Source of the DNA: a virus
Lineage: Duplodnaviria; Heunggongvirae; Uroviricota; Caudoviricetes
Reading direction: 5' to 3' (one strand)
DNA: 64,000 nt
IMG/VR virus record: IMGVR_UViG_3300005323_000039
Coordinates: 1 to 64,000 of that record
The notes below the pieces were generated by a model that was given only the letters and a program-made list of their open reading frames with translations, searched no databases and had not been told where the DNA came from. The position numbers and the translations under genes are program-made. This document shows, in pieces, positions 4,377 through 64,000 of the stretch (its first letter is position 1; each line of letters opens with the position of its first letter).

Positions 4377-4379
4377 AGT

Positions 4380-11348: not shown

Positions 11349-11698
11349 GCAAATGGAGGAAACTTGTTGTGAAAGACGAATTACTCATCGGATACGGGGA
11401 ACTCGAACAAGAAGATTTGATCATACGGTACAAAGAATACGAGGATGACGGTTTTGGAGGATTAAAGTTTGTTGTAATACAACACAAGATACAGGACATT
11501 GGATTTTTTCCAATCGATACTGAAATCTTTGTAACAGATACAATCGGATTAAACCTTGATAAGGATGCTGAATTTGGTGCAGCCGATTCAACAAAAGTCG
11601 TGATGAAAACTTCAATTTATATTGATTGTGGTCACGATGGAATAATGTGTAACGATGGTAGCGATGACAACGACAACGAACCAACTCCAACTGATTAG
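11306..11698 (+). CDS. hypothetical protein
   Basis: ORF in + array; 44-nt overlap with polB start. Confidence 0.35.
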   Translation: MVAHSTNKKLFKRLSKWRKLVVKDELLIGYGELEQEDLIIRYKEYEDDGFGGLKFVVIQHKIQDIGFFPIDTEIFVTDTIGLNLDKDAEFGAADSTKVVMKTSIYIDCGHDGIMCNDGSDDNDNEPTPTD

Positions 11699-26106: not shown

Positions 26107-26436
26107 ATGTCAGGTAAAGCGACTGTTCAATTGGACTTATTCGGAGCAAAGGATCCGTTGGCTGGATTCGAACGCCCTGAATACCATGAAAAAGATTATC
26201 CTCAGTGCAAGGGTTCGGAAAAGAAGCCAATGAAGGACTTGAATTACTTTTACGTGGATTTTTATGGCCGCGATGACCTATTCCAACGTTTGACTCTAAT
26301 AATGAAAAAACGAAGTGGAATACGCGGACTCCACAGAGTAAATCCAGAACTCTTTGAACAAATGGTGTTGTCATTAGAAGGAGATCGTGTTGTGATGGAG
26401 GACACAAATGATGACGGAAGTACAACCCAAGTTTAG
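26107..26436 (+). CDS. hypothetical protein
   Basis: ORF overlapping start of radical SAM gene. Confidence 0.35.
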   Translation: MSGKATVQLDLFGAKDPLAGFERPEYHEKDYPQCKGSEKKPMKDLNYFYVDFYGRDDLFQRLTLIMKKRSGIRGLHRVNPELFEQMVLSLEGDRVVMEDTNDDGSTTQV

Positions 26437-31835: not shown

Positions 31836-31873
31836 ACGTTAGCTATATATACTAGCTCAACGTACTTAGCGTT

Positions 31874-36731: not shown

Positions 36732-38252
36732 TTGTTGTTTTTTGAATGTATTTTTGGTTCGTTACACATGCTCTACTCTAGTGACACTTTGAAAGTCGTG
36801 ATGGCTCGCCTCCACTTCTTTCCATTCGTCGAATATATGTGGTCGTATAATAATTACGAAGTGAATTGGCATCACAAAGTTTTGTGTGAGTATTTGGAGA
36901 AGTGGGCCTTCGGAAACATCAAACGTTTGATGGTATTCATGCCTCCCGGTAGCGGAAAATCGGAGCTAGTGTCTCGTAACTTACCCGCGTGGATTTTCGG
37001 CAAAAACCCAGACGCAATGATGATGGCCACCAGTTACGGAGCAAGCCTCGCTTCCGATATGAACAGAGACGTACAAAGAATACTTGATTCAGAAGCATAT
37101 AAAAAGGTGTTCCCAACTGTTGGATTATCGGGCAAATCGGTTAGAACGGTTACAACGGGCAGCTCTTACCTCCGAAATACTGAAGTGTTTGAAATAGTTA
37201 ATCACAAAGGATATTATAAGTGTGCTGGAATTGGTGGTTCAATTACCGGCAAAAGATTTTTTTATGGAATAATCGATGACCCGTTGCGTGGTCGCAAGGA
37301 TGCCGAATCACAAACAACACGTGACACTATTTGGAACTGGTACAAAGACGATTTCCATACAAGGCAATTAAATAAAGACGCTCGTATATTGCTCACGTTG
37401 ACTCGATGGCACGCAGACGATCTAGCAGGTCGCTTGTTGGAAGAACAACGTACTATTCCCAACGGTGACAAATGGACTGTAGTCAGAATCCCTATGATTT
37501 CCGAAGAGGACGACAGATGTCCTGAAGATCCTAGGGAGGTTGGGCAACCTTTGTGGCCGTCTCGATTTGGCGGAATTGAAGCAATGGAAGCTCTGCGACA
37601 AAGCAAAGGTACGTATTCTTGGGCAGGTCTCTATCAACAGCGCCCGACTCTGGCCGCAGGTAACATCTTCAACAGAGGGTGGTGGCGCTATTATAAACAA
37701 TCACCAGAAGAGCAAGCCGCTGGATGTACTGAATTGATACAAACTTGGGACTGCACCTTCAAAGATGGAGATGGTACAGATTATGTCGTGGGCCAAGTTT
37801 GGGGCAGAGATCGCGCTGACAAATATTTAATTGACCAGGTACGTGGTAGAATGGACTTTCCGACCACTCTTAGTGCCATACGAAGCTTGAGCGCGAAGTG
37901 GCCTAAAGCAACACGCAAACTTATAGAGGACAAAGCGAATGGTCCTGCCGTCATTTCCACTCTACAACACGAAATCGCTGGCATCATTCCAGTCAAACCT
38001 GAAGGAGGTAAAGTTGTTAGAGCACAGGCAGCAGCTCCAACAATCGAATCAGGCAATGTATATTTGCCGAGTCCTGTGCATGCTCCCTGGATTCATGACT
38101 TCGTACAAGAGTGTTCGGATTTTCCCAACGGCAAACATGACGATATGGTAGATGCATGTACGTACAGTTTAAATTATTTCATCAATCGGCCACAAAAGCA
38201 GCGCGTCGCTCTGCCTCACAAGTTAATCAGTAGCGGGGACGGTTGGAGATAG
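36732..38252 (+). CDS. terL: terminase large subunit (ATPase + RNaseH-like nuclease)
   Basis: Walker A MVFMPPGSGKSELV; C-terminal nuclease motifs WDCTFKDGDGTDYVVGQVWGRD and HDDMVDACTY. Confidence 0.85.
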   Translation: MLFFECIFGSLHMLYSSDTLKVVMARLHFFPFVEYMWSYNNYEVNWHHKVLCEYLEKWAFGNIKRLMVFMPPGSGKSELVSRNLPAWIFGKNPDAMMMATSYGASLASDMNRDVQRILDSEAYKKVFPTVGLSGKSVRTVTTGSSYLRNTEVFEIVNHKGYYKCAGIGGSITGKRFFYGIIDDPLRGRKDAESQTTRDTIWNWYKDDFHTRQLNKDARILLTLTRWHADDLAGRLLEEQRTIPNGDKWTVVRIPMISEEDDRCPEDPREVGQPLWPSRFGGIEAMEALRQSKGTYSWAGLYQQRPTLAAGNIFNRGWWRYYKQSPEEQAAGCTELIQTWDCTFKDGDGTDYVVGQVWGRDRADKYLIDQVRGRMDFPTTLSAIRSLSAKWPKATRKLIEDKANGPAVISTLQHEIAGIIPVKPEGGKVVRAQAAAPTIESGNVYLPSPVHAPWIHDFVQECSDFPNGKHDDMVDACTYSLNYFINRPQKQRVALPHKLISSGDGWR

Positions 38253-42531: not shown

Positions 42532-44199
42532 ATGAATTATTCGTTTAATTACGAACAATATCGAGCAGAGGCTATACGCCACAAGCAAACCAAAAGTATT
42601 CCTCCTGAAGAAATTAAAACAAATGCTAAACGTAAGACACGAGTTGTTGGGGACCCTTACCCTATACTCCCAACCTATAGCACAATATATAATCGTATTA
42701 CGCCGGACCTTCTAGAAGCAACCGCAAAGGTCGCGCCAGTTCAACGCTCCTTACGACAATTGGAGCTTATAGCGTTTCCTTGGTTCGAATTCAACGTAGT
42801 TGCGCCTGGAGTAGGTGAAGCTGAAAACAAGCAAGAGCAGGCCCTACTCGACCGCATGAAGCAAGAAGATAAACGTTTAAAAACGAACACTCTCTGCAAG
42901 CAGTCTTTTTATGATTTGATAACGTACGGTAGTGCTCTATTCGAGAGAGTATGGGTCACAACAAAAGATGGGTGGATCGTGCCCAACCTCCAAAGGTTGC
43001 CTGCAAAGTCCTTTAGCTATGCCGTGCCTGAAATCCAGGGAAATCCTACACGATATTTAGTCGGCAGAATTTTAAAGGGTATTGTATATGACAAGCAGGA
43101 ACAAAGAATGCGGTTTTTCCAGAAACAATCTACCAGCTCTGTTCCTGTAGAAATCGACGCAGAAAATGTAATCCATCTAAAGGATGAATGTTCGAATTAC
43201 GTTGACGGCGATCCGTATCTCGCAGGTATCGTTTCTACGGTGACTCAATTGGAGTTCGCCCGCAAGCGTATGATGCAAACAGTTAGTAGAGGAGGAGCTC
43301 CAAACGCTATAGTCAAAGTCGGATTACCGGACAGCTTTAAAGATGACACAGGTTCGAAGGACCTCACAACGGCAATGCCTGGAGCAGGCACAACCCCTAA
43401 CGACCAAATCTATACTGACTTGTGGGAGTATGCTACACTTTTAGTCCAAAACCAATCCTCTGATACTGCTATAGCTGTGCCAGAAGGTGTAGATTTCCAA
43501 TACCAAAACATTCCGATATCGTTGGATCCCACTGTGCCCGATAGCTATTTAATTCGAGAACTCATATCGCACATATTTCCAAGAGATGTTTTAGAAGTTC
43601 TTTCACAATCAATCAGTACCACATCCGCTCCCCTGTTAGAACTCCTCAAAATGATGATTCAGGGGTGGCAAGCTGTATGCTCCACTCCATTCGAAAAGGT
43701 TTGGACAGAGTTTGCTCAAAAGAACGGATTCGATTTATACGAAGTTTATTTTGATTGGGCTCCCTTCATTCCTGATGATCCCGCCAACGAACATAAATTG
43801 GCTCTAGAGAAATTCATGGTGCACACTATCACGCTAGATGAATACAGAGAATCGATTGGACTAGATCCTTTAGATAAGGCGCAAAGGGTTGTTATATATG
43901 AGGAGCTGACGCGGTGGAAGTCACCTGCGCAGCCTCCCCAACAGCAGTTCGGACAAGCTGGAGCAAGTGAAGATGGCGACATGGGGCCAACTCCAACCGA
44001 AGGCAACGAATTGACTCAACCAACTGATCTTGTCCAAGAAGAACAAAAATTAAATGAAGTGTTCGATGGCGTAAGAACTTCTGCTACATTGGATGAAGAA
44101 CTCATGGGGATTCTACGAGATACTGGTTCAATTGCAATGAAGGTTCTTAAAAGCGCGAACTATTTTGAAGTTTCCAAAACATCATCAATAAAAGGATAG
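42532..44199 (+). CDS. portal protein candidate
   Basis: 555 aa; position between terminase and MuF-like/scaffold/capsid genes; acidic C-terminus. Positional inference. Confidence 0.45.
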   Translation: MNYSFNYEQYRAEAIRHKQTKSIPPEEIKTNAKRKTRVVGDPYPILPTYSTIYNRITPDLLEATAKVAPVQRSLRQLELIAFPWFEFNVVAPGVGEAENKQEQALLDRMKQEDKRLKTNTLCKQSFYDLITYGSALFERVWVTTKDGWIVPNLQRLPAKSFSYAVPEIQGNPTRYLVGRILKGIVYDKQEQRMRFFQKQSTSSVPVEIDAENVIHLKDECSNYVDGDPYLAGIVSTVTQLEFARKRMMQTVSRGGAPNAIVKVGLPDSFKDDTGSKDLTTAMPGAGTTPNDQIYTDLWEYATLLVQNQSSDTAIAVPEGVDFQYQNIPISLDPTVPDSYLIRELISHIFPRDVLEVLSQSISTTSAPLLELLKMMIQGWQAVCSTPFEKVWTEFAQKNGFDLYEVYFDWAPFIPDDPANEHKLALEKFMVHTITLDEYRESIGLDPLDKAQRVVIYEELTRWKSPAQPPQQQFGQAGASEDGDMGPTPTEGNELTQPTDLVQEEQKLNEVFDGVRTSATLDEELMGILRDTGSIAMKVLKSANYFEVSKTSSIKG

Positions 44200-44203
44200 T
44201 TGT

Positions 44204-45397
44204 ATGCCTACACATCAACCCAAAAATTTCCAACAGTTGCTTAAGTTGTTGGAACAACCCTCAGGAGAATATCCAGCAGCTCTGGAAGCTCTATGGCCTA
44301 AAGTTAGTACACCGCTCGCAAAGGAATTGTTGAAGAAGAATTGGAGCTTGTGGGCCAGACTATGGGCCAAACAAGGCGCAAAAAGTTACCTAACGGGCGC
44401 GCGCGTACATGCAACGAAGTCCGGCATTCCTTATTCTGGAGAAATTGGTACCAGATCTAAAGAATATTTTTTGCAACATGGGCTGGATTTGGTTAAAGGA
44501 ATGACTGAAACCGACCTACAAACTGTAAAGGATGGTATGTTGGAGTGGTGGGGTGTTGGTGAGGAGCAGTTCGCTCGGAACTTGAGTGAGTCATATGTAG
44601 CATCTCCAGAACGATTAAAAACAATTTACAGAACTGAGCACCATGATGCTCAAAATCAGGGCGCGCAAGACCTTGCAAAAGAAGTAGGACATGATACAAA
44701 AACCTGGTTTAGTGCGCACGATGAACGATCATGTCCTATATGTGGCGAGCAATTACACGAAAAAACAATCCCTATTGATGAAGAATTTGTTGCATACTAC
44801 ACTCGGAAGGACGGGAGCGAGATTGAAATTAGAGTGCAGCATCCTCCGGCTCACCCGCGATGCTATTCACATGATACAGAAGTTTTCACAGAGAATGGTT
44901 GGAAACTCTTCAAGAACGTTCTACCTGACGAAAAAATTTGGACTCTAAATTTAACCAATAACCAAGTAGAGTTATCAGAACAAATAAATCAGGTAAGATA
45001 TTGGTACGAAGGTTGCTTAATTCACTTTAATGGAAGTGCAATTGATTGTTTAATAACTCCAGACCATTCGATGCTAGTTGCAAATAGCAATGGTTTCGAA
45101 TTAATCGATGCATCAAAAGTTGCTCCAACTGATCGCATTTTGCTAGGATTTTTACCCGAAGAACGCACAATATCGTACGACTATTCCATAAATAGTGTTA
45201 AATATAATGACATAGTATATTGTGTAGAAATGGAGAAAAACAACACGTTATATGTTAGGCGCAATGGTAAAGCTAATTGGGCAGGCAACTGCAGATGCTC
45301 CATTATAACCACAAAAGATAAAACTGAAGCGCGCCAAAACGCTCGCTCTAATATGAAGCTCAATTACAGTGACGACCAGCCCCGCGACGAGAAATAA
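44204..45397 (+). CDS. Mu-F/SPP1-gp7-like head morphogenesis protein interrupted by a mini-intein
   Basis: Immediately after portal candidate; conserved C-terminal HPxCRC motif is split as HPPAHPR | intein | CRCS. Confidence 0.6.
   Translation: MPTHQPKNFQQLLKLLEQPSGEYPAALEALWPKVSTPLAKELLKKNWSLWARLWAKQGAKSYLTGARVHATKSGIPYSGEIGTRSKEYFLQHGLDLVKGMTETDLQTVKDGMLEWWGVGEEQFARNLSESYVASPERLKTIYRTEHHDAQNQGAQDLAKEVGHDTKTWFSAHDERSCPICGEQLHEKTIPIDEEFVAYYTRKDGSEIEIRVQHPPAHPRCYSHDTEVFTENGWKLFKNVLPDEKIWTLNLTNNQVELSEQINQVRYWYEGCLIHFNGSAIDCLITPDHSMLVANSNGFELIDASKVAPTDRILLGFLPEERTISYDYSINSVKYNDIVYCVEMEKNNTLYVRRNGKANWAGNCRCSIITTKDKTEARQNARSNMKLNYSDDQPRDEK
44861..45289 (+). other. mini-intein (143 aa, no endonuclease domain) within head morphogenesis gene
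   Basis: Block A CYSHDTEVFTENGW, block B TPDHSMLV (TxxH), C-terminal ...NWAGN followed by +1 Cys; excision restores HPPAHPR-CRC motif of host protein. Confidence 0.65.
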
Positions 45398-51521: not shown

Positions 51522-51917
51522 ATGACAATCACGACATATAGTGATAGAACAGCACCAACCACCCTGCCTTTGCCCACAGGTGCATCCACCTCAGCAAACC
51601 AGCAGCCACCCGCTACAACTCCTGCAATGGACAGCATAACCATTGTTGCCGCAAATACCGAGTACAGCAAGGCACTTCCTGCAAACTGCAAAGCCTTCTG
51701 TTTTCAAACAGTAGCAGCCGATAAGCTAACAGCAGGCGCTGATATCAGGTACGCCTTCGCTACTGGGAAAGTGAACTCCCTGACATTGCCCTTCCAGATA
51801 CTCGTCGGTGGAGCAGTCTATTCAAAAGAGTCCCTGAACCTGACATCTAAAACGATATATGTAGCGGGCGGAGCCGATGCTGTTGGGAATATTGTTCTTC
51901 TTGAGTGGTGGACATAA
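51522..51917 (+). CDS. stand-alone homologue of the C-terminal domain of the repeat-containing fibre protein (55489..56661)
   Basis: EYSKALPANCKAF..YAFATGKV...NLTSKTIYVAGGADAVGNIVLLEWW aligns with EYSYSIPSNCKSV..FAFTTGKV...NLSSKTVYFASDNAGDIVEILAWS. Confidence 0.45.
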   Translation: MTITTYSDRTAPTTLPLPTGASTSANQQPPATTPAMDSITIVAANTEYSKALPANCKAFCFQTVAADKLTAGADIRYAFATGKVNSLTLPFQILVGGAVYSKESLNLTSKTIYVAGGADAVGNIVLLEWWT

Positions 51918-53431
51918 TGCCCGCTGGTACAAAGCCGTACACATCCAAGGATTTTGCCAAGGATAATCCCAATCACTACACAAGAAAAGATTGGAATTGG
52001 ATGATCTATGACATCGATTCGATATCACATCGGAGGACACTAAAAAGCCCCGAATATATCACTGTCGAAATAGGCGGAGACACGTATAGACTCAGGACTC
52101 AGCAGCTAATAGATTTTGACACAGATTCCGTCTGGGATACGGTTGTAGGTACTGATTACTCAGATCTTACTGTTAGGGCTGGCAAGGACGTCTATTTCTA
52201 CATGTGTCAGCCAGGATACGGGAAAATCCCCGAAATCATAATGTCCGGGGCCTCTACATGGCCCTCTGGTTATGATGCCGACAGCTCACGAAAAATAGGC
52301 GGGCTTCATTGCATGCCAGGCGCTTGTGTCAACCTCCCGGTAGGCCATCCGTACAAGGACTTCGATCAAGGTGCGTTGCATTTCAATTCGATTTGGGATC
52401 TCAACGATGGGCCACGGTGCTCTCCAGAAGGCATGGCGAAGATCAGCCTGACGCCCTCGGACGGCAGGCCCGCTCTTTGGGTAGACATCTACCTCTTCAA
52501 CGGCGTTGGTACCACCCTCACATCGGTTTTCGGTGCAACAATCAAGGATACGATTGATTGGATGACATTTGTCGATTATGCCGGGGCAGCGAAGAAGACT
52601 CTGCTCACAGACGCGGAGTTCCAACTCGCGGCCGCTGGCAGTAACGAAGAGACGCACATAAGCACGGGGCTAGATCCAGTAACCGTGACTTTCCCCGTGG
52701 ATACGGCGGGCCGCTCCATGATTTCAAATTATGGCGTCATCGGCATGTGCGGCATAATGTACCAGTGGATTTTAGATGGTCTCGGAAAAGTGGAACCAGA
52801 TGGCACGGTCACCGCCGCATCGAAAACAGCCACGGCGTACCATGCCGCGAGCCCCGGTGGTAACCCCATCTATGTAAAATATGCTGAAAATGGTGAGCCG
52901 TATTTATGTTGTAACATGGCCATAGATACTGCTGATAAATGGCTCACATTTGGAACTGATTACAGAGTGTTGATAAAACATGATGCTGATGCAGCAACTG
53001 GATCTACTCAGCTATATCTCGACGAGGATGCAACCCAACCATCCCGGCCGCTATCGGCCTTAGCGCGGGGAAAAGATGCGTATGTTGCTACGAATAATCC
53101 TTTCTATGTATTGAAGATAACATACAATGCCGCACCAGCAACACCCGGAGTCGCCATCACGTTCGATGATGGCTCAGATGAGAGACTAGAATTCACATCC
53201 CCAACTTCTGTAAATGGTACAATCGATTTGGCGCAGCTATATCCGAACTACAACGCATACGACTACAGCACAAAGGGATCATATACGAGGTACGGCGGGA
53301 GCTATGATGTCAAGCAGATAGCAGGAGGCCACTTCCAGGCCGGGGTCGGCGCGGGATCTAGATGCAGATTTGCGTTATATCCCCGGTGGATTACGCAATC
53401 ATTCATCGGAGCACGGGGGTGTTCGAATTAG
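51905..53431 (+). CDS. tail fibre/tail structural protein candidate
   Basis: 508 aa, Gly/Thr/Ala-rich; GC-elevated block; overlaps next ORF by 62 nt. Confidence 0.4.
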   Translation: MVDIMPAGTKPYTSKDFAKDNPNHYTRKDWNWMIYDIDSISHRRTLKSPEYITVEIGGDTYRLRTQQLIDFDTDSVWDTVVGTDYSDLTVRAGKDVYFYMCQPGYGKIPEIIMSGASTWPSGYDADSSRKIGGLHCMPGACVNLPVGHPYKDFDQGALHFNSIWDLNDGPRCSPEGMAKISLTPSDGRPALWVDIYLFNGVGTTLTSVFGATIKDTIDWMTFVDYAGAAKKTLLTDAEFQLAAAGSNEETHISTGLDPVTVTFPVDTAGRSMISNYGVIGMCGIMYQWILDGLGKVEPDGTVTAASKTATAYHAASPGGNPIYVKYAENGEPYLCCNMAIDTADKWLTFGTDYRVLIKHDADAATGSTQLYLDEDATQPSRPLSALARGKDAYVATNNPFYVLKITYNAAPATPGVAITFDDGSDERLEFTSPTSVNGTIDLAQLYPNYNAYDYSTKGSYTRYGGSYDVKQIAGGHFQAGVGAGSRCRFALYPRWITQSFIGARGCSN

Positions 53432-54643: not shown

Positions 54644-55033
54644 TTGGAAAAATTACGCTCACCTCATATATTGATAACAATGACTGCAAACGAAACATCG
54701 AATACAAACCTCGCTGATGGATGGTGTGACTTCATTACAGGCACATGCAGTGACGCCTATTCAATTTTGATCGAATGGAACTCCCTAGGCTACAACAAGA
54801 AAACAATACTTGTAGAGAACACTCACGCAACGTACGACATGAACGTTAAAGTCCTATGTTATACGTACGACAATCAAACTCCATACGAACAAGTACCAGA
54901 AATGACACTCACTTCTGGAGATATTTTAAGAGTTACCCTGAATAAAGCTTGGTCGCAGGTAGTTGTATGGGGCAAGAATAGAGTTGCTGGCCAGAACTGT
55001 ACTTGGAATCTAGATTTTACAGGTCACAGGTAG
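54644..55033 (+). CDS. small structural protein, paralogue family
   Basis: ENTHAT motif; paralogous to 55043 and 51168 ORFs. Confidence 0.4.
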   Translation: MEKLRSPHILITMTANETSNTNLADGWCDFITGTCSDAYSILIEWNSLGYNKKTILVENTHATYDMNVKVLCYTYDNQTPYEQVPEMTLTSGDILRVTLNKAWSQVVVWGKNRVAGQNCTWNLDFTGHR

Positions 55034-55042
55034 CGTGATAGC

Positions 55043-55507
55043 ATGGTTTTAATGAGTATAAGGAATGCGTTCAGGAGAGGCTTTATTTCCGAAGCTACGT
55101 ACCTTGTGAAACTTGCGGAAGCTGCTGGAGATGACGAAATTCCAATAGTTGTAACCGTTCCAACGGCAATCTTCACGCAAACTCCACCTAATGGTTTTTC
55201 TGATTATGCTACAGGCACAACAACAAGCAACTATATGGCGGGAATGACTTGGAACTGCTCCGGATATGATCAAAAATCCATTACAATAGAGAATACAGGT
55301 GGAGCGAATTCACTAACTGTATATGGTGCGCTCCGAGCGTATCCAGCAGGCATATCATATACTGAACCTGACGCAACTGTTCTCACTCCCGGAGACATTC
55401 TAACAATTGAACTGAATTTTGCATACGCTGAAATCTCCACGATGATTAAATCGACAACTCCAAACTTCCATACAACTTATAAAATTTCTTGGGCAGGTGC
55501 TCTATGA
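55043..55507 (+). CDS. small structural protein, paralogue family
   Basis: KSITIENTGGANSLTVYGA motif. Confidence 0.4.
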   Translation: MVLMSIRNAFRRGFISEATYLVKLAEAAGDDEIPIVVTVPTAIFTQTPPNGFSDYATGTTTSNYMAGMTWNCSGYDQKSITIENTGGANSLTVYGALRAYPAGISYTEPDATVLTPGDILTIELNFAYAEISTMIKSTTPNFHTTYKISWAGAL

Positions 55508-56661
55508 CACAGTACTCTTACACAGATGTTACAGTCACAATTGATCATATAACAGGTGCATTGCCAGCAGGCACCAATTTAATTGGCAAAGTTGGCATAG
55601 ATCAGGTTACAGCGAACGCAAATGAAATTGTCATAAAAAGTATAACGGCTGGCCCTCTACCAGACACGTCCGGAGGAGATCTTGCCAGCATTGAATCTTC
55701 TGCTGCTGATATTAAGACTGCAATCGAGATCCTAGACAACGTAGTAAGTGGATCCGAAGCGCAGGTAGACATTGTAACGTTGCCCGCGGGTCATTTAGGC
55801 CAACAACTGGCTGCAGGCTCTCTATCAGTTGTACCAGGAACAAACATAGCGGATGCAACCTATATCGGGGACATTAAGTTCGGCGAGGCTCTTCCGGCTG
55901 GTACGGCACTCCTGGGTAAAGTCGGAATCGATCAGACGACACCCGGAACCACGAACCTCGTGAATGTGAATGGCGGTGCGAGTCAGACCAGTGACATTAA
56001 AGTTACCTTGGACTCCGAGAAAGTTGTAATCGCATCCATTGATGGCGGTGACACGAACATCGGAAACGTTGACATCGTGACATTGCCTGCGGGAAACCTT
56101 GGCCAACAGCTAAGTGCTGCGTCACTTTCCGTTACACCTGCTACGAACGTGGCAGATGCTACTTACATTGGAGATGTAAAGTTTGGTGAAAGCTTACCAG
56201 TGGGCAGCGCAATTGTAGGCCAAGTTGGTATCGATCAAACAACCGATGGAACCACGAACAAGGTCCAGGCTCGTAACGCAACGCATGATAACTTCCAGGC
56301 CAACGCAAACCTCCAGGTTGGAGACGCTGACGTCGCTGCAGGAAATCCCGTACCTGTTACGACAGCAGGAAGTATGGCATCAACTATTGGTGAGCAAAAT
56401 GTCACTCTAACTGTAATTGATACTGAATACTCGTATAGTATTCCATCCAATTGCAAAAGCGTTGAATTTTGGTCGCGTAATGGCTATCCGGTTAGATTTG
56501 CGTTCACGACTGGAAAGGTTGCAACACCAACTGGCGTTTACTTCACCCTGAAGTCAAATTGCAGCTATGCAAGCCCGCCATCATTGAATCTGAGTTCGAA
56601 GACTGTCTATTTCGCCTCTGATAATGCTGGTGACATCGTGGAAATTCTGGCTTGGAGCTGA
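55489..56661 (+). CDS. tail fibre protein with internal 101-aa repeats and shared C-terminal domain
   Basis: Two copies DIVTLPAG.LGQQL.A.SLSV.P.TN.ADATYIGD.KFGE.LP.G.A..G.VGIDQTT.GTTN; C-terminus homologous to 51522..51917. Confidence 0.5.
   Translation: MGRCSMTQYSYTDVTVTIDHITGALPAGTNLIGKVGIDQVTANANEIVIKSITAGPLPDTSGGDLASIESSAADIKTAIEILDNVVSGSEAQVDIVTLPAGHLGQQLAAGSLSVVPGTNIADATYIGDIKFGEALPAGTALLGKVGIDQTTPGTTNLVNVNGGASQTSDIKVTLDSEKVVIASIDGGDTNIGNVDIVTLPAGNLGQQLSAASLSVTPATNVADATYIGDVKFGESLPVGSAIVGQVGIDQTTDGTTNKVQARNATHDNFQANANLQVGDADVAAGNPVPVTTAGSMASTIGEQNVTLTVIDTEYSYSIPSNCKSVEFWSRNGYPVRFAFTTGKVATPTGVYFTLKSNCSYASPPSLNLSSKTVYFASDNAGDIVEILAWS
55768..56259 (+). repeat. in-frame tandem repeat, period about 303 bp, 2 copies (plus partial N-terminal copy)
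   Basis: Direct reading. Confidence 0.6.
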
Positions 56662-58495
56662 GAAAATGCCACAGAAGTTAGATAAGTCTCCGAGAGGCGC
56701 ATACGATGCCATAGTCTTCATCGACGGCTCTGAGGTCGTGGCAGAGGATGCTGATGGTCGGCGTATTGCATCAGGAACGGCGGGGACGGACGACGTGGCG
56801 GTGCTGCAAGCAGCTCATGACTCTGGTAGTAGATATTATGGTGGTACAATTTCGCTAGATGGCATATTTAATCTCGCCGATGTGCCTTGGATCATTAGAA
56901 ACAATTTCACAAAAGTTCGTGGAAGTGCAAACACTATCATAAAACAGAATAGCGCAAATGTTGACGCGATTCAGTTTACCCCAATTGTTGGTCAATCTGC
57001 TATCGAATTTGTTGGTATGGAAGATGTACGAGTCGAAACGGTTGCTGGCTCTGGAGACGCCATTAATACATATAGACTGTGCAGATCATGCCTTAAAAAT
57101 ATTCACATTCCAGGCGCTGGAAGATATGGTCTACGTTTAAACTCGTCGCTGCTCAACGAAATAGATAGTTTGTGGGTAAGCCCGGATTTAGCACAGGGGT
57201 TATCTGGTTGCGGAACTGCATGCGTCAATATCCATCGAGAGAATACTTCTGATTGGGCATCAAACGCAAATGTATTTGTTGCTCCAACTCTCGAACAATC
57301 ACAATATGGTCTGTTGATCGATGACCAACGTAATGATGCTGGCACAAACGAAGGCTTCAATCTCGTTCTCGGCGGAACAATTGAAAGTCAAACAGTTGAA
57401 GGGATATCTGCAACTAGAACGGATGGTCTTCAAATATATCAGACAGATCTTGAAGGTCGGGGTATTACTCTATCATATTGCCATTGGGCCGCGCTCTCCC
57501 CCGTCCATATGGACGCACTCGTTGCGTCGAATTGTCAAGGTGTAAAGTTTTTCAACGGGAAACTGGATAATGGCATTACTCTTACATCGTGTAATAACTC
57601 ATTATTTGAAAATATCAGAAATGGTGGAGGGTTAGATCTCAATGGATGCAACACCACCAGATTCTTAAATTACGTAACATATGGATCTACATTAGTCAGA
57701 TCTAATAACGTTCTCACCGAATTTTTGAATGGCGTGTTTGCTGCTCTTGCACCATCTGATTATGCATATGATACCGCATATCAACGAATGTCGTTTGGTG
57801 ATAACAGTTGGTGGGGCGGCGAGCCTGGATGGAATGACGTTCTTAATAATAGAGACATGAATCCATCAGATAGTGCATTGCCAAATGGGTTTGTTCAGAA
57901 TGGCTCCCCGACTTTAGAAACGTGTGGTATTGGCCACGCGGACACGACGAAATACAAAAAGGGGCATTCTCTGAAGATCACAAAATCAGATGCTCATGAT
58001 GGTGTATACGTTCCAATTAATGGGCATTTCACAGAAGAGAAAATTGTCGTAAAATTTAGGACGAGTGCTATAAGTGGTTCTGCTCCTCTCATCTTGGTAA
58101 CAGATTCCGACTTCAACCCATTGATATCGAAGTCTTGCGTTGCGGCATCAGCGTCAACCGCATGGGCAAAAAATGATTATATGTTTACAGTGCCTGCTGG
58201 ATATTCTACATTATGGATATTATTCTCTGGAGCGAATGGACAAGTCGCATCATTTTATCTTACAGATGTTGTTGTGGGTAGATATGACACGATAGCGACA
58301 TCTTCCGGCTCCTCAACCGGCACAAGCTCCGAACAAACCATCGCCCACTCCCTAGCCGCAATTCCCACCGGCTGCAAAGCCTGGATCAAGTATCTGGTAG
58401 GTACTCGCTACGTCACGGAGATGATTCCCTTTGATGCTACAAATGTTTATCCGAATGTTACTGCTGGTGTCGCATACGAATGGAGGATAGAGTAA
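56624..58495 (+). CDS. tailspike / right-handed beta-helix (pectin-lyase-fold-like) protein candidate
   Basis: 623 aa; repeated short beta-strand segments with Asn/Gly ladders (NGITLTSCNNSLFENIRNGGGLDLNGCNTTRF) typical of parallel beta-helix. Confidence 0.4.
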   Translation: MLVTSWKFWLGAEKMPQKLDKSPRGAYDAIVFIDGSEVVAEDADGRRIASGTAGTDDVAVLQAAHDSGSRYYGGTISLDGIFNLADVPWIIRNNFTKVRGSANTIIKQNSANVDAIQFTPIVGQSAIEFVGMEDVRVETVAGSGDAINTYRLCRSCLKNIHIPGAGRYGLRLNSSLLNEIDSLWVSPDLAQGLSGCGTACVNIHRENTSDWASNANVFVAPTLEQSQYGLLIDDQRNDAGTNEGFNLVLGGTIESQTVEGISATRTDGLQIYQTDLEGRGITLSYCHWAALSPVHMDALVASNCQGVKFFNGKLDNGITLTSCNNSLFENIRNGGGLDLNGCNTTRFLNYVTYGSTLVRSNNVLTEFLNGVFAALAPSDYAYDTAYQRMSFGDNSWWGGEPGWNDVLNNRDMNPSDSALPNGFVQNGSPTLETCGIGHADTTKYKKGHSLKITKSDAHDGVYVPINGHFTEEKIVVKFRTSAISGSAPLILVTDSDFNPLISKSCVAASASTAWAKNDYMFTVPAGYSTLWILFSGANGQVASFYLTDVVVGRYDTIATSSGSSTGTSSEQTIAHSLAAIPTGCKAWIKYLVGTRYVTEMIPFDATNVYPNVTAGVAYEWRIE

Positions 58496-58998
58496 TGACC
58501 GAAAATCCCGTCATGGTTCCCAACTTCCCGGAATCAATTCTCACTTGGGAAGATGAAATTCTCAGTTATGAAGGAAATATTCTTACATATGGTTTTGTAT
58601 ATGGATGGTGTTCACCAATGAGTGATGCAAAATGTAAAACATTAGGACTACTGTCTTCAACGACAGTAAGTTTCGCGGCTGATGCGCACACGGTTCTCTA
58701 CACGGTCCCTGTTGGTAAGAGATGTGTCCTGCATTCGGCTTGTATCGTGGCTGCGACTGATGCCGGAGCAACTACAGCAGTTTCCATTGGCGCGAATGGG
58801 GCTGAAACCGATTTCGTCGGGGCTCATGTTCTGAGCAACCTCGACGCCCAGTATGATTCTGTCTGGCTAATGCCGATTCCGAACGCGACTCCTGTGAAAT
58901 GTAAGTCCTATGCTGCTGGAACTGTTATTGAGATGGCAGTGGCGACGCAATCAGGCGGGGCTGGAAACACGGTTTATCTCTTCGGATATCTGTACTAA
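58480..58998 (+). CDS. hypothetical tail-associated protein
   Basis: ORF overlapping tailspike stop. Confidence 0.4.
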   Translation: MEDRVMTENPVMVPNFPESILTWEDEILSYEGNILTYGFVYGWCSPMSDAKCKTLGLLSSTTVSFAADAHTVLYTVPVGKRCVLHSACIVAATDAGATTAVSIGANGAETDFVGAHVLSNLDAQYDSVWLMPIPNATPVKCKSYAAGTVIEMAVATQSGGAGNTVYLFGYLY

Positions 58999-59110
58999 AA
59001 GCTAAGTGAACAATCAATTGTTCACTTGTTTCAATTTATTATGCAATATGAATAATAGTCTCATCAATACTTGAGACAACTAACAAAAAACTAAAAGGAG
59101 AACTGAATAA

Positions 59111-59452
59111 ATGCCAAAAGACATAACATACCTTAAAAATGGTACAGGACTCATGGTGTGCGACGGTTGTGACACCATCATGAAGATCGTGAATCAAAAG
59201 GCTCGCCAAGTCCAGTCCGCTATAATCGAAGGGCAGTCTGCTGGTGCAGGCAGCACACTAGCTTTTAACGAAGACAAGCGCGCGATTCAAAACTTGGAAT
59301 CCCTTAAAGCTGATGTCGATTTAATGGTCGACAATCTTGTAACTCTAATTAAGGGCGTCAAGCACATGGAAGTTGACGCGGATCAGTTGGATCACGCCGG
59401 AGTTACAGGATACTACGCACTTCCAGCGACCGTACCAATGGGCGACGAATAA
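59111..59452 (+). CDS. hypothetical protein
   Basis: AAGGAGAA SD-like 10 nt upstream. Confidence 0.4.
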   Translation: MPKDITYLKNGTGLMVCDGCDTIMKIVNQKARQVQSAIIEGQSAGAGSTLAFNEDKRAIQNLESLKADVDLMVDNLVTLIKGVKHMEVDADQLDHAGVTGYYALPATVPMGDE

Positions 59453-59487
59453 ACCACAAATTAAACAAACTTTATAATAATGATCGG

Positions 59488-60737
59488 CTAGAGTGGAGAC
59501 GCTCTAGTTCAATACATTTTATTCAATTAATAGAAAAGCAGGCAACGTCTCGGTTGAAGTGATCAAACGATACATAGAGGAATGTCAGGGTTGAAGACCG
59601 CCTACAAGTTCAGGCTCTATCCAAACAAACAACAGGAAGCCATGTTAGACCTGACTCTTGAAACTTGCAGGCATCTCTATAACTTAGCTTTGGCCGATAG
59701 AAAGAACGCCTATGAGGTTGAAGGTGTCAGTCGAAACTATGAGGATCAGGCTGCTATGCTGACTGTTGAAAAGAAGGACGGCAATTTCAAGGGCGTCTTC
59801 TCCCAAGTGCTTCAAGATGCCCTGAGACGGCTGGATAAGTCCTTCAAAGCGTTCTTCCGAAGAGTTAAGGCTGGAGAAGAACCAGGATATCCTCGGTTCA
59901 AAGGCCAAGGCTGGTACAAGTCGTTCACGTATCCGCAGGCAGGTTTCAAGCTGGAAGGTTCAAAGCTGACTCTCTCCAAGATAGGTTCTATCAGGATCTT
60001 CAAGCATCGAGAGGTAGAAGGCAAGATCAAGACCTGTACTATTAAGAAAGATAAGCTTGGTCGCTGGCATGCTATCTTGGTATCTGAGATAGAAGACGTA
60101 CCTCAAATAGAGTCTAAGACAGCTATTGGCGTGGACGTTGGTCTGAAGAACATGGTAGCTCTGTCCACCGGAGAGACAGTTCAGTATCCAAGATACTATG
60201 TCAGAGCTGAACAAAAGCTTGCTGTAGCCCAGAGAGATCTTTCCAGAAAGAAGAAAGGATCAAGTAACCGTCGAAAAGCCAAAATCAAGGTCGCTAGGCT
60301 CCATCAGAAGATCCAAAACCATAGAGATGAGTTCCTGCATCAGGTATCCAGGAAGCTGGCGGACTCAGCAGACCTAATAGTATTTGAAAACTTGAATATT
60401 CAGGGAATGTTGAAGAACCATCACCTGGCAAAGCATATTCAAGACCATGCTTGGGGCAAGCTAATCCAGTTCACACAAAGCAAAGCTGCAAAGGCTGGCA
60501 AGGTGGTAGAACTGGTAGAGGCTAGGTATACGTCTCAAAAGTGCTCTCCGTGTGGTATAATGGTTCCTAAGACTCTGGCAGAAAGAGTCCACCACTGCCC
60601 TAATTGCGGGCTAGAGATGGATAGGGATATCAATGCCAGTCTAAATATCGTCACCCTCGGACTGAGGGGAAGAGCCTGCGGAGATACCAGAGCACTGGAT
60701 CTATGAAGCAGGAAGCCCTGCCCCTTTAGGGGCGGGG
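59488..60737 (+). mobile_element. IS200/IS605-family element of IS1341 type (tnpB only, no tnpA), approximate boundaries
   Basis: Upstream hairpin CTAGAGTG-GAGA-CGCTCTAG (59488-59507) and downstream GC-rich hairpin GCCCTGCCCC-TTTA-GGGGCGGGG (60715-60737) flank an intact tnpB; GC of tnpB higher than flanks. Confidence 0.5.
59582..60706 (+). CDS. tnpB: TnpB (IS605 OrfB; OMEGA RNA-guided endonuclease)
   Basis: N-terminal KFRLYPNKQQE...LYN motif; RuvC-I GVDVGL, RuvC-II IVFENLN, zinc finger CSPCG..CPNCG, RuvC-III DRDINASLNI. Confidence 0.85.
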   Translation: MSGLKTAYKFRLYPNKQQEAMLDLTLETCRHLYNLALADRKNAYEVEGVSRNYEDQAAMLTVEKKDGNFKGVFSQVLQDALRRLDKSFKAFFRRVKAGEEPGYPRFKGQGWYKSFTYPQAGFKLEGSKLTLSKIGSIRIFKHREVEGKIKTCTIKKDKLGRWHAILVSEIEDVPQIESKTAIGVDVGLKNMVALSTGETVQYPRYYVRAEQKLAVAQRDLSRKKKGSSNRRKAKIKVARLHQKIQNHRDEFLHQVSRKLADSADLIVFENLNIQGMLKNHHLAKHIQDHAWGKLIQFTQSKAAKAGKVVELVEARYTSQKCSPCGIMVPKTLAERVHHCPNCGLEMDRDINASLNIVTLGLRGRACGDTRALDL

Positions 60738-60766
60738 AGGAAGTCACTCAATTAATTGATTAGTAT

Positions 60767-61009
60767 TTGAATAAATTTAATGGAGGACTAAATTTAATGC
60801 CAACTCTAAAAGAAATTTCAGAATTTATTGACACTCAGAAGAACCTTGGGATAACTCTACTTGCTATATTCATTGGATTGTACGTGACGATGAATTCAAG
60901 CATACTCGATATGACGATCGCCAAACAGTGGGTTGATTTAGCTCAACTAGCTGTCGGCATTTATATTGGTCATAGAATAGAAGCGGGCCGCACTCCAAAG
61001 GAAGAATAA
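60767..61009 (+). CDS. small membrane protein (holin-like?)
   Basis: 80 aa, two hydrophobic segments, basic C-terminus. Confidence 0.35.
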   Translation: MNKFNGGLNLMPTLKEISEFIDTQKNLGITLLAIFIGLYVTMNSSILDMTIAKQWVDLAQLAVGIYIGHRIEAGRTPKEE

Positions 61010-61206
61010 GAGTAGCGCGAGATGACGAACGTGATTGCGCCACGTCCACCAGAGCCCGCGCAATATACTAACCGCTCTATTCGAATATATACTTTACCGC
61101 AATAAACTATATACTCAATCTTTGGTATATTGTTTTGGAGTAGAGTAAATGTTCCGAGCGATTAGTATACAACATTCCCCTTACAATCCCACTCCAAAGG
61201 ACTATT

Positions 61207-61620
61207 ATGACTAATGATATTGTTCCTGAAAGCGATCGAGAAATTCTAATCAAGATCGCCACAAGAATGGACAGCGGGTTCACTTACATCACGCACAAGC
61301 TGGACGATTTGTGCGAGCGACTGAAAGCAGTAGAGGAAGTGACAAACGAAGTGAAGAACTTCCCCACCTTTCGAGACACAACGTGCCCTCAAAAGATGAA
61401 TCAAATCGAACAAAGTTTGCAAAATGTCGAGTCAAGATTAGGCAAACTTGAAAATGACCATTTAGTAGAGTGTGGCGAAGAACAAGCAGCCACTACATTT
61501 TGGTCCATTCCAAGGGAAATCCTCCTGATGACAATGGGCGCGATTGTAGCAGCAATTGTCGGAGGACTTGGATGGATTGCATTTAAAGTCCTATGTAACA
61601 CATTCTCCATTGGATGTTAA
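61207..61620 (+). CDS. coiled-coil protein with C-terminal TM anchor
   Basis: 137 aa; C-terminal hydrophobic helix ILLMTMGAIVAAIVGGLGWIAF. Confidence 0.4.
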   Translation: MTNDIVPESDREILIKIATRMDSGFTYITHKLDDLCERLKAVEEVTNEVKNFPTFRDTTCPQKMNQIEQSLQNVESRLGKLENDHLVECGEEQAATTFWSIPREILLMTMGAIVAAIVGGLGWIAFKVLCNTFSIGC

Positions 61621-61646
61621 AAAATAGAAACTAAATAACGAACACA

Positions 61647-61817
61647 TCACACAGTATACCATGATATGGGTGTAAGAATGGCGCAAATCATTGCCAAAGC
61701 AAAAGCTATGATTGTTCCATATGATGTGTTCGTTACTTTATTTATTACAAATCCAATTGTACCACATACGATGGCCAAAATACCACTCAAACCTAACGTT
61801 GCCAAAGTATTAAACAT
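61647..61817 (-). CDS. small 2-TM membrane protein (56 aa)
   Basis: Manually translated minus-strand ORF MFNTLATLGLSGILAIVCGTIGFVINK...; not in track. Confidence 0.25.
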   Translation of the reverse strand: MFNTLATLGLSGILAIVCGTIGFVINKVTNTSYGTIIAFALAMICAILTPISWYTV

Positions 61818-61836
61818 TGTTTAACCTCTAAAATGA

Positions 61837-62103
61837 TTAGAAGGACTGTATGAGGCCTCCCATGATTATTGAGCGTGCGACTAACTCTTTTTCCTCTTGT
61901 GTCATATGGACACAATATTTATTGATGTAGTCTGTTATGATACAGTCATGAAATTCTTCTTGTGTAGAGTAGCGCGAATCTTCGATTGTATCAATTGTTG
62001 TTTGTACGTCGTTGCGTGTTTGATTTGTTGCTTTGCGCGCTCCTTCGTCTGTGCCTAGTAGGATTTTTAAAGCTAGTGCTAATTCTCTTTGCATGTAGTC
62101 CAT
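61837..62103 (-). CDS. hypothetical protein
   Basis: Minus-strand ORF downstream of radical SAM gene. Confidence 0.4.
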   Translation of the reverse strand: MDYMQRELALALKILLGTDEGARKATNQTRNDVQTTIDTIEDSRYSTQEEFHDCIITDYINKYCVHMTQEEKELVARSIIMGGLIQSF

Positions 62104-62112
62104 CTCCGCATT

Positions 62113-62316
62113 TTACTTCTTATGTGCTTCTTCTCCAAACATCACATTTTCTCGTTCTTGCCATTCTTTACGTTTCTTAGCTCTATCAATCGATGAGGTG
62201 TTCGGAATTGACGGTTTGGACGCATCGCTCGATGTATCTATACCTATTGCAATTATTGTACAGAGTGTCGCCCCAACAATTGCTAACAATATTACACGCA
62301 ATATGTTTAACTCCAT
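62113..62316 (-). CDS. small membrane-anchored protein
   Basis: N-terminal TM, basic C-terminus; immediately downstream of radical SAM gene. Confidence 0.35.
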   Translation of the reverse strand: MELNILRVILLAIVGATLCTIIAIGIDTSSDASKPSIPNTSSIDRAKKRKEWQERENVMFGEEAHKK

Positions 62317-62335
62317 ATCATACCTTCTTTTGATT

Positions 62336-63751
62336 TTACTTCTTATTCACTTCTTTTATACGCCTCACTCCAAGGATGTCGTGCTTTACAACACCGTAAG
62401 CGAGAACGTCGGGATCTCTCCCAAACATCATACCCCTTCTACGTCTCCGTTGCATTTCGTCTCGCCACGCTCTTGTATAATCTTCATCTTCTTCTATAGG
62501 CTCAACTTTATCCTCTAGTGCGTCATCTACTATTGTTTGAAACGTTTTGGCTGCATCACTTGATGTTGACGAATCAACTGAAGGATGCATCTGAACAGCG
62601 TATGCCATAACTTTAGTTTCGTACGTTCCAACGCCATACACAATTGTGCCTTCATATGGCCTGACTCCATATAAAGTGACTTCTAATGGTTTGTATGGAT
62701 CAGGCAGCTCAATTGGTTGTTCTGGTAACGGAGTTGCAGGTTTAGGTGCAATGGTTGGCGTGAGACGTTCAATCGCAGGATACTTTATGCATTTTCTGCA
62801 TGAATGTGTGTAACCTGCCCCAAACCTTATATCCTTAAATTGTGACTCCCAAATTTCTTTTAAAGTTTGTTTGTTCAGATTACCGTAAGGTGTAGCAATT
62901 CCGTTGTTGCAAGCGCGCTCGCTCAGGCACGCTATAACGTCTCCATCAGCAGTTATTCCACACGTACTGATTCCAGCTGAACAAGTATGCTCATCTTGTA
63001 GATTGTCCGCTAAGATGTAACTAACGCCTGTTGTGTGGTTCCGAATGCGTTCCCTCAAATAAGATATTCCATTTGGAGGGAGCTGGAATTCGCCCATCGT
63101 TAGTTGAATTTGCCACGTTCCGAAGCCACTCGAACGAACGAACTCACTCAGAGCGTCAAATTGCCATACGTTGTGCGTACCAAAGTTTGTAATTATTGTA
63201 ATATCTTTTTCGTGGCCATCAACGTAATCAAACCAATACGGCCACTCTTCATTTACACTTAGTCCAATGCATGTGACTTTATCAATTTGTTTGTACCAGC
63301 TCCACTGAGCTAGAATTTTTCCGTTAGTCACTATTCGAACGTCGATGCCGCCATCAGTTAGAGTTTGTATGATGTGGTCTAGGTGTTCGGACGGAAGCTC
63401 CCCAGGCTCTCCACCACTTAGCGTGACTGTATTCACTCCATATGAAACAATTTCTTGTGCGATACGGTCGAGTTGCTCAAATGGAGGGTTGTCGCGCCGA
63501 AGGACTGTTTTGGACCCACAATATTTGCACCCATTTGAACATTTGAGTGTCACTTCCCATATAATTTCTTTCAATTTTAAGGGTGTCATGTAAACCTCTG
63601 TTCCAATAAGACTCCTCCAATTGCAGCAACAACACATAGTATGACGGCAGGGACGATCGACCAAGATCCAAACAACGACTCCAAAACATATGACCATATT
63701 GTACCGATAATCATTCCACTTGACAATATCCACAATAGTACAAATATCCAA
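62336..63751 (-). CDS. radical SAM enzyme with Cys-rich SPASM/twitch-like auxiliary region and Pro-rich C-terminal extension
   Basis: CSNGCKYC (CxxxCxxC), TLSGGEP SAM-binding motif; downstream Cys array C-x6-C-x10(DGDVIAC)-C-x5-C ... SCRKC. Confidence 0.6.
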   Translation of the reverse strand: MDICTIVDIVKWNDYRYNMVICFGVVVWILVDRPCRHTMCCCCNWRSLIGTEVYMTPLKLKEIIWEVTLKCSNGCKYCGSKTVLRRDNPPFEQLDRIAQEIVSYGVNTVTLSGGEPGELPSEHLDHIIQTLTDGGIDVRIVTNGKILAQWSWYKQIDKVTCIGLSVNEEWPYWFDYVDGHEKDITIITNFGTHNVWQFDALSEFVRSSGFGTWQIQLTMGEFQLPPNGISYLRERIRNHTTGVSYILADNLQDEHTCSAGISTCGITADGDVIACLSERACNNGIATPYGNLNKQTLKEIWESQFKDIRFGAGYTHSCRKCIKYPAIERLTPTIAPKPATPLPEQPIELPDPYKPLEVTLYGVRPYEGTIVYGVGTYETKVMAYAVQMHPSVDSSTSSDAAKTFQTIVDDALEDKVEPIEEDEDYTRAWRDEMQRRRRRGMMFGRDPDVLAYGVVKHDILGVRRIKEVNKK

Positions 63752-63767
63752 CTTTTCATGTATGATT

Positions 63768-63788
63768 GTACGTTAAAGTAGTATATAT
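63768..63788 (-). promoter_or_regulatory. archaeal-type promoter (identical 21-mer to 4380-4400) upstream of minus-strand radical SAM gene
   Basis: Reverse complement reads TATATATACTACTTTAACGTA; lies about 20-40 nt upstream of ATG at 63751. Confidence 0.4.
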
Positions 63789-63813
63789 AGGTTGCTGTTG
63801 GAAAAAAATAGAG

Positions 63814-63978
63814 TTAAGTGTACCACTTGACTGGAAGGAGCGTTGCATACGCAACAACGAATACAATGCCCGCAAGCATAGAGGATACTGGCCCCACAAT
63901 GTTCCACAAGCCCGAAAATATTGCAACAGATATTGCCGTTCCAACAATCGAAGCTAGTATGATTTTCATCATGGTCAT
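63814..63978 (-). CDS. small 2-TM membrane protein (54 aa)
   Basis: Manually translated MTMMKIILASIVGTAISVAIFSGLWNIVGPVSSMLAGIVFVVAYATLLPVKWYT; preferred over overlapping Cys/Arg-rich track ORFs. Confidence 0.25.
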   Translation of the reverse strand: MTMMKIILASIVGTAISVAIFSGLWNIVGPVSSMLAGIVFVVAYATLLPVKWYT

Positions 63979-64000
63979 GGGGTTTCTGCCTCCAAGAAAT

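Follow-up and report, generated by a model that had tools for sequence, protein, structure and literature searches.

What does the radical S-adenosylmethionine (SAM) enzyme encoded near the end of a large phage genome fragment act on? The gene in question lies on the minus strand of IMG/VR virus record IMGVR_UViG_3300005323_000039, whose positions 1 to 64,000 make up the stretch of DNA analysed here (hereafter the window). An earlier note on this DNA, made from the sequence alone, had proposed that the enzyme modifies a peptide or protein and that the small open reading frames (ORFs) around it may belong to the same cassette. The decisive feature, which that note overlooked, is found in the enzyme itself: its own C-terminal tail carries conserved X-Y-G-V repeats. 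The reading that we favour, with confidence a little short of even, is that this tail would be the substrate of a virus-restricted radical SAM/twitch enzyme with splicing-type chemistry.

The repeat-bearing tail and the enzyme family

The region behind the catalytic core had been described as a Pro-rich linker followed by an extra C-terminal domain. The linker was found as described, while the supposed domain is mostly a disordered tail of low model confidence (predicted local distance difference test score, pLDDT, 32-59) with two short helices. Four motif copies are present in the tail of the window protein, the third of which is a Y-A-V variant (Table 1). In the column after Y330, 38 of the 71 aligned sequences have G and 17 have A. 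The homologues align with the window protein over the core and then differ in length, with Y318 still invariant in an alignment of 24 sequences. The distal tail with motif 4 is specific to the window phage and is not covered by homologues.

When 70 tails were compared, the pattern Y[GA][VATC] was observed 158 times, against 7.9 ± 2.7 times in shuffled tails, and the reverse dipeptide GY was depleted (3 versus 25 expected). The consensus of these tails is P(-5)-x-V(-3)-x-[V/M/L](-1)-Y-G/A-V-x-x-P(+5). The best-conserved positions in 169 motif copies are Y (169), G/A (169), and V at +2 (129), and the residue X at -1 is mostly V, M, or L. A further 113 cluster representatives, no two of them more than 50% identical, carry 1-6 motif copies in nearly all cases. 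At least one motif is present in 173 of 180 members, with the 1-7 copies of P-x-V-x-[MLV]-Y-G-V-x-x-P placed behind a Pro-rich linker (429 motifs over the 180 members; median spacing 12 residues). Counted from a point 60 residues after the CLSxR anchor, which falls near the end of the Fe-S domain, the first motif follows after about 28 residues. Pro, Tyr, Val, and Thr are abundant in the tails and Cys and Leu scarce, with Pro at 9.6% compared with 3.0% in the cores. No direct DNA repeats were detected in the window tail, and the motif repetition is therefore kept at the protein level.

Four members (P0017, P0021, P0023, and P0045) appeared to lack a tail. Three of them are interrupted, two by frameshifts (one of these at an A9 run) and one by an in-frame TAG, and still encode the motif downstream; the fourth ends 95 nt from the end of its contig. 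The TAG is located at a conserved Trp position (L036:3260-3262) and the frame continues beyond it, and the A9-run shift lies around positions 2810-2824 of L034. These interruptions could be sequencing errors, pseudogenes, or recoding. The C-termini of P0108, P0126, P0130, and P0147 read DD[I/L]PF, like the acidic tip of bacterial single-stranded DNA-binding protein (SSB) that serves in partner binding, and many other family tails end in Lys-rich runs.

The family is confined in practice to uncultured large phages. A search of 5.8 billion proteins yielded 78 clear homologues, nearly all of them metagenomic and many on contigs of 100-170 kb. In a profile search of 1.84 billion cluster representatives (clusters at 50% identity), at least 276 matched at E <= 1e-30, the best 150 of which all score above 300 bits. 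In IMG/VR, 22 family loci were found on viral contigs of 14-373 kb. The family occurs in 3 of 185,579 species genomes, all three being contigs of metagenome-assembled genomes (67-249 kb), and an enzyme homologue is present in none of 50,697 GenBank phage records. A virus-encoded radical SAM maturase had been thought unusual. This does not hold for a phage radical SAM gene in itself, since predicted viral proteins include many uncharacterised radical SAM and radical SAM/SPASM proteins (40 BFVD matches at E <= 0.001).

Catalytic core, candidate substrate, and alternatives

The protein has a radical SAM core (Pfam Radical_SAM, PF04055: 46.3 bits versus a gathering cutoff of 29.5), with the canonical CSNGCKYC cluster and the GGEP motif that had been noticed earlier. 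The second Cys array, HTC-x6-C-x10-C-x5-C ... SCRKC, is also present, and the Pfam SPASM match (PF13186: 39.3 bits versus a cutoff of 21.5; profile positions 1-66 of 67) spans exactly that array. Together with the invariance of C203, C221, and C264 in all 71 homologues, this bears out the SPASM/twitch-type auxiliary domain suspected before. C210 is conserved in 61 and C267 in 38 of the 71; the 33 members without C267 have a CC pair at 263-264 in most cases and a nearby Cys in a minority. The first SPASM half (C-x12-G-x4-C) is intact. The canonical seven-Cys pattern, CX9-15GX4C ... CX2CX5CX3C ... C, was not found in the protein, in which the CX2CX5CX3C block is absent. The Cys count and spacing are compatible with the twitch type, and the family profile aligns to BtrN over the auxiliary region (30.5 bits). 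Judging from these patterns, the auxiliary domain is reduced to about four conserved Cys and is probably twitch-like, with one auxiliary cluster.

The core (residues 1-285) was modelled by AlphaFold (AF2) with pLDDT above 90. In a Foldseek search with the AlphaFold model, PqqE, CteB, and SuiB ranked first (about 1e-10, TM about 0.46), followed by BlsE, DesII, viperin, SkfB, and MoaA. These top matches agree with the resemblance to peptide maturases pointed out in the earlier note. No curated NCBIfam model passes its cutoff for the phage enzyme, the top ones being TIGR04133 (56 bits versus 425) and TIGR04103 (52 bits versus 725). The model of WgkB, a crosslinking maturase, matches the auxiliary domain with 37 bits. 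Pfam and NCBIfam scans detected neither a RiPP (ribosomally made, post-translationally modified peptide) recognition element (RRE) nor a PqqD domain in the enzyme.

Outside the family, only six proteins were matched in the 5.8-billion-protein search. The family profile scores them at 93-114 bits, compared with 39.9 bits for the best solved radical SAM enzyme. All six are TIGR04103/TIGR03913-like. TIGR04103, named 'nif11-class peptide radical SAM maturase 3', is their best or second-best model with 212-275 bits, still below the cutoff of 725. XYG-repeat partners were found for two of the six, P0084 and P0083. Two genes upstream of P0084, a bacterial SLH-domain protein (L029:743-1540) ends in PDYGF...PPYGF...PMYGI, and the pair looks like a protein-substrate spliceotide system. 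The repeats of P0083 are located in a Cys-rich tail (LAYGVFP, CEYGVIP, DEYGMVP, and CDYGDEP), which holds an internal signal/lipobox-like stretch and may be a merged gene call.

The tyramine spliceases target X-Tyr-Gly, and such motifs can be multiplied; the natural splice-site residues X are Met and Leu, and the products inhibit Ser/Cys proteases (PMC11414181, PMC11626197, PMC9811515, PMC5995677). On the favoured reading, the catalytic core would be joined by the Pro-rich linker to a built-in substrate, the disordered tail of P-x-V-x-[M/L/V]-Y-G-V-x-x-P units. The 5'-deoxyadenosyl radical would act on X-Tyr-Gly sites in the tail, either that of the same molecule or that of another copy, most likely by chemistry of the tyramine splicease type (PlpX, RhaX). 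Tethering the core peptide to its maturase would make a leader, an RRE, and a Y protein dispensable, and all three are absent. With ketoamides spread along it, the disordered tail might then inhibit Ser/Cys proteases and blunt host proteolysis, for example by ATP-dependent proteases, or protease-based defences. In its fullest form the proposal is that of virus-only, single-polypeptide 'auto-spliceases', in which X-Tyr-Gly repeats would become alpha-keto-beta-amino acid warheads and the protein a multivalent covalent inhibitor of proteases, with which the phage would disarm the proteolysis or protease-based defence of its host; we regard this fullest form as rather unlikely.

Several observations weigh against a self-spliced tail. 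Since no NCBIfam model passes, the assignment to spliceases by sequence is weak. TIGR04103 matches only the N-terminal 90 residues of the phage protein, no better than the TIGR04133, MoaA, and viperin models do, and TIGR04103 is presumed to be the PlpX family, as 'nif11-class' in its name suggests. The TIGR04103-like relatives retain the full CX2CX5CX3C SPASM block, whereas the phage family has lost that half. In the motif itself, Y-A replaces Y-G in 21% of copies, and Val at +2 (129/169) is more conserved than X at -1, which could suit another chemistry. A split version with separate enzyme and peptide was not found among the tail-less members, the motif segment being always fused. The tail was not placed on the core with confidence by AlphaFold, either in the window protein (pLDDT 32-59) or in the short-tailed P0022 (49-63). 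Finally, the protease-inhibitor role is speculative.

The tail might also be a substrate for another chemistry, such as a Tyr-to-Val C-C cyclophane over Y-G-V (triceptide type), another crosslink, or epimerisation, an alternative that we consider unlikely. Repeated three-residue motifs are typical of triceptide-type substrates, and such enzymes act on aromatic-X-X motifs. Y, G/A, and V are the three best-conserved positions, the tolerance of Y-A-V fits a spacer role for the +1 residue, and the top structural matches are the crosslinking maturases PqqE, CteB, SuiB, and SkfB, with WgkB matching the auxiliary domain. However, no cyclophane-synthase model is among the top 25 NCBIfam matches (a comparison with models), the flanks of the motif (P-x-V-x-phi before and x-x-P after) and its Y-G core closely match validated splice tags, and the nearest outside relatives are TIGR04103-like and have XYG partners. 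It is likewise doubtful, with a slightly better case, that the tail is not a substrate at all. The Y-G-V units would then be linear motifs or beta strands for oligomerisation, localisation, or partner binding, and the enzyme would have another target, which could be a nucleotide, a cofactor, or a protein of the phage or the host. Short strands at LYGV and IVYG pair in the AF2 model at low confidence without docking confidently on the core, the DD[LI]PF ends of four members suggest that tails can bear interaction motifs, the homologues lie amid nucleotide and DNA metabolism genes, and the sequence affinity to spliceases is weak. Against this, a motif in variable copy number (1-7) on a Pro-rich disordered tail, attached to a maturase-type radical SAM enzyme that has no RRE, is what a tethered core peptide would be expected to look like; the motif coincides with a known radical SAM target motif, and no conserved partner gene was found.

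The remaining two alternatives are far less probable. In a RiPP-like cassette, the enzyme would mature the product of a small flanking ORF (54, 57, 67, 88, or 56 aa). The small ORFs run in the same direction as the enzyme gene, with tight spacing, and the 56-aa ORF has one S-Y-G-T. However, when ORFs were called and clustered in 28 loci, none of the flanking ORFs of the window recurred beside the homologues in the 27 loci outside the window's phage, and conserved neighbours in the 28-locus set were seen only inside one closely related clade. None of the five ORFs has a PHROG match, a Pfam scan of the 88-aa ORF (the sole small ORF scanned) gave matches far below cutoff, and the tail repeat motif is absent from all of them; their products are hydrophobic with two transmembrane (TM) segments or charged, and gene finders pass over the 57-aa ORF. 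The cassette proposed in the earlier note is thus largely refuted by the missing synteny, and as an explanation it is very improbable; the flanking products were rejected as substrates by the synteny and the lack of family matches. The least probable alternative is a single-cluster enzyme of the QueE or activase type, with either a small molecule or a glycyl-radical protein as its substrate; the earlier note had named this grouping as one that would speak against its proposal. The enzyme did not group in this way: a PHROG match to 'QueE-like radical SAM domain' (24.8 bits) and NCBIfam matches to QueE and NrdG are weak, with QueE models at 22-28 bits versus cutoffs of 206-300, the SPASM match exceeds its Pfam cutoff and the auxiliary Cys are invariant, and the tail motif is Y-G, not the glycyl-radical G-Y, the dipeptide GY being depleted in the tails.

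If the tail is the substrate, the phage gene would represent a one-gene, leader-free system for radical SAM modification of a protein, a layout that engineers now build by fusing leaders or RREs to spliceases (PMC11414181). Backbone-modified proteins would then join the anti-host toolset of phages. If the auto-splicease reading holds, the phage family would provide the first spliceotide system of viruses and the first radical SAM peptide maturase that is naturally fused to its substrate. Copy number and residue X vary naturally over at least 276 clusters, which would offer a ready-made enzyme/tag library. The family is found only in uncultured phage sequence and has therefore probably escaped bacterial genome mining. 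Whatever the chemistry, the conservation in large phages of a radical SAM enzyme whose tail repeats a motif calls for an explanation.

Gene, neighbours, and phage context

Table 1. Coordinates of the enzyme gene, its motifs, and the adjacent small ORFs in the window.
Feature	Position	Strand	Remarks
Radical SAM / reduced-SPASM enzyme gene	62336..63589	-	417 aa + stop; start ATG 63589
Radical SAM [4Fe-4S] motif CSNGCKYC, C17-x3-C21-x2-C24	63518..63541	-	three Cys invariant in 71/71 homologues
GGEP SAM-binding motif, residues 59-62 (within SGGEPG)	63404..63415	-	G59 and G60 invariant; E61 and P62 at least 90% conserved
Reduced SPASM / probable twitch-like domain, residues 203-267, C203-x12-G216-x4-C221 ... 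C264-x2-C267	62789..62983	-	Pfam SPASM
Pro-rich linker, residues 271-303, PAIERLTPTIAPKPATPLPEQPIELPDPYKPLE	62681..62779	-	pLDDT drops from 78 to <50 along the stretch (AlphaFold)
X-Y-G-V motif 1, T305-L-Y307-G-V309 (TLYGV)	62663..62677	-	
X-Y-G-V motif 2, I316-V-Y318-G-V320 (IVYGV)	62630..62644	-	Y318 66/71, G319 53/71, V320 48/71
Motif 3, Y-A-V variant, V327-M-A-Y330-A-V332 (MAYAV)	62594..62611	-	Y330 66/71, V332 52/71
X-Y-G-V motif 4, V395-L-A-Y398-G-V400 (LAYGV)	62390..62407	-	near C-terminus
AGAGG ribosome-binding site	63595-63599	-	5 nt upstream of ATG 63589
21-bp repeat TATATATACTACTTTAACGTA, candidate phage promoter	63769-63789	-	upstream of enzyme gene
54-aa two-TM ORF, upstream	63814..63978	-	called on L001 and L002; no PHROG match; absent beside homologues
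57-aa hydrophobic ORF, doubtful gene	63586..63759	-	stop overlaps enzyme start (ATGA); listed mechanically
67-aa TM ORF, downstream	62113..62316	-	not conserved with enzyme; no PHROG match
88-aa ORF, downstream	61837..62103	-	called as 85 aa; not conserved with enzyme
56-aa two-TM ORF, last gene of minus-strand block	61647..61817	-	not conserved with enzyme

The protein had been given as 471 aa long. That length results from taking the first TTG after a stop, which adds 54 codons, and the minus-strand ORF as listed mechanically is 62336..63751; the correct protein has 417 aa. The ATG start listed in Table 1 is assigned because three lines of evidence agree: all homologues begin with M-x-x-LKLKE, matching this start, gene callers choose it on two independent contigs, and the AGAGG site precedes it. 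The 417-aa protein is identical to P0001, called on JGI and Logan contigs.

It had also been stated that the gene is transcribed from an exact copy of a 21-bp promoter. The exact repeat and its position upstream of the gene stand, with the coordinates given earlier one base off, and its role as a promoter is that of a candidate only. A second exact copy of TATATATACTACTTTAACGTA was found at 4379-4399 (+) and a copy with 3 mismatches at 31844-31864 (+), the chance expectation being 0.01 matches, and all three copies precede ORFs of the same strand. A phage-specific promoter is plausible. The core common to the three copies, the only ones in the 64 kb, is CTATATATACTA(C/G)(T/C)T(T/C)AACGTAC. Within it, we take TATATATA to be reminiscent of T4-type late promoters (TATAAATA). 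A scan of 61000-64000 for sigma-70 promoters and terminators found sites no more numerous than in shuffled sequences.

The 54-, 67-, and 88-aa ORFs reported beside the enzyme gene do exist; gene callers add the 56-aa ORF and shorten the 88-aa ORF to 85 aa. The 57-aa ORF was skipped by gene callers and no Shine-Dalgarno sequence was found upstream of it. The surroundings of the homologues contain many small genes mixed with genes of nucleotide and DNA metabolism (Thg1, Pol III alpha, ThyA-like, RNA ligase, and Metallophos), and small ORFs simply form the background there. On either side of the operon lie the 54-aa and 56-aa two-TM ORFs, which share a W-Y-T(V) ending and similar hydrophobic layouts and may be paralogues. 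A second SPASM-domain protein (337-349 aa, phrog_7293, Pfam SPASM 23-25 bits) is encoded near the tailed radical SAM gene at L005:4014-5027, L034:255-1304, and six other loci, 0.7-1 kb upstream of it in the clade of P0010 and 1.5 kb downstream in L016/L017; the window does not encode this protein. A thymidine-hypermodification or QueE-type role was rejected, with no supporting neighbours in the window and with the curated models failing.

The window phage is a tailed phage. It codes for a family B DNA polymerase (11655-14123), a large terminase (36732-38252) with at most 45% identity to any GenBank phage, a portal protein and a Mu-F-like protein (42532-45397), a D5-like primase-helicase, an RNA ligase, and a TnpB element. 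No DNA match to GenBank phages was found for region 55000-64000. The window sequence recurs on a 116-kb JGI metagenome contig, and the enzyme protein is recorded on contigs of up to 173 kb. A second radical-SAM-like protein of 476 aa is encoded at 26408-27838 (+), with a Pfam Radical_SAM score of 29.1 bits that is slightly below the 29.5 cutoff. Near it lies an asparagine-synthase-like gene (24582-26006, +), and the two may form another modification module of the same phage. The TnpB / OrfB_IS605 (Cas12f-like) gene (59582-60706, +) is located about 1 kb from the 3' end of the radical SAM operon, whose last gene ends at 61647; in another phage, a TnpB gene lies about 4.4 kb downstream of the homologue P0007. 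In addition, an Mtd-like tail protein (51905-53431, +; Mtd second domain PF21916, 47 bits; phrog_11262) could be the target of a diversity-generating retroelement.

Comparison with tyramine spliceases and other known systems

Among curated families, TIGR04133 ('rSAM_w_lipo') is the best-scoring model, at 56 bits and for all 24 members tested, far from its cutoff of 425. TIGR03913 ('GDL-motif peptide-associated') co-scores with TIGR04103 on the nearest relatives, and its cutoff of 592 is likewise far off. Both families are themselves functionally uncharacterised. The twitch enzymes BtrN, MoaA, and SkfB have a single auxiliary cluster built from the CX9-15GX4C half and one or two later Cys, an arrangement that the Cys pattern of the phage protein would fit, and MoaA is the best solved-structure sequence match to the phage family. 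However, the substrates of BtrN and MoaA are small molecules, the identity is 14-18%, and none of the three has a motif-bearing tail.

The fusion of an enzyme with its candidate substrate has a parallel in the borosins, the OphMA-type autocatalytic N-methyltransferases, in which the enzyme and a C-terminal substrate core also form one polypeptide. The reaction of the borosin type is 'autocatalytic backbone N-methylation' (PMC5995677). Fold and chemistry are unrelated, the borosin enzymes being SAM methyltransferases of fungi and bacteria; the analogy is one of layout only, and self-modification by the phage enzyme is a proposal.

The tyramine spliceases (PlpX/PcpX with PlpY; RhaX, RcsX, and RasX) share with the phage enzyme a radical SAM domain and a C-terminal Fe-S domain. 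Their X-Tyr-Gly sites may be repeated and may sit in proteins, as the phage repeats sit in the enzyme's own tail. In the known systems, however, a separate gene codes for a leader-bearing precursor (Nif11/NHLP or other), and PlpX works on Nif11-like precursors (PMC11414181, PMC11626197, PMC9811515, PMC5995677), whereas the motif segment of the phage protein is fused to the enzyme. Type I spliceases have a PqqD-like Y protein, while the phage system has no leader, RRE, or Y protein. The phage family further differs in tolerating Y-A, in keeping Val at +2, and in being virus-only. A back-translated pattern of the PlpA3 core (Pleurocapsa plp locus) had no match in genome contigs. A phage-encoded or naturally fused splicease was not found in the literature searched, which did not include the survey of splicease types (2022).

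The closest likeness is at the level of the tags. An 11-residue tag suffices for recognition by PlpXY (PMC11414181, PMC11626197, PMC9811515, PMC5995677), which is near the length of the phage repeat unit. Validated splice tags include AVAA-MYG-VVFP from PlpA3 and PIRP-LYG-LPI (PMC10533398, Table 1), and phage tail units such as VVMYGVFP closely resemble AVAAMYGVVFP, with the flanks of the motif alike.

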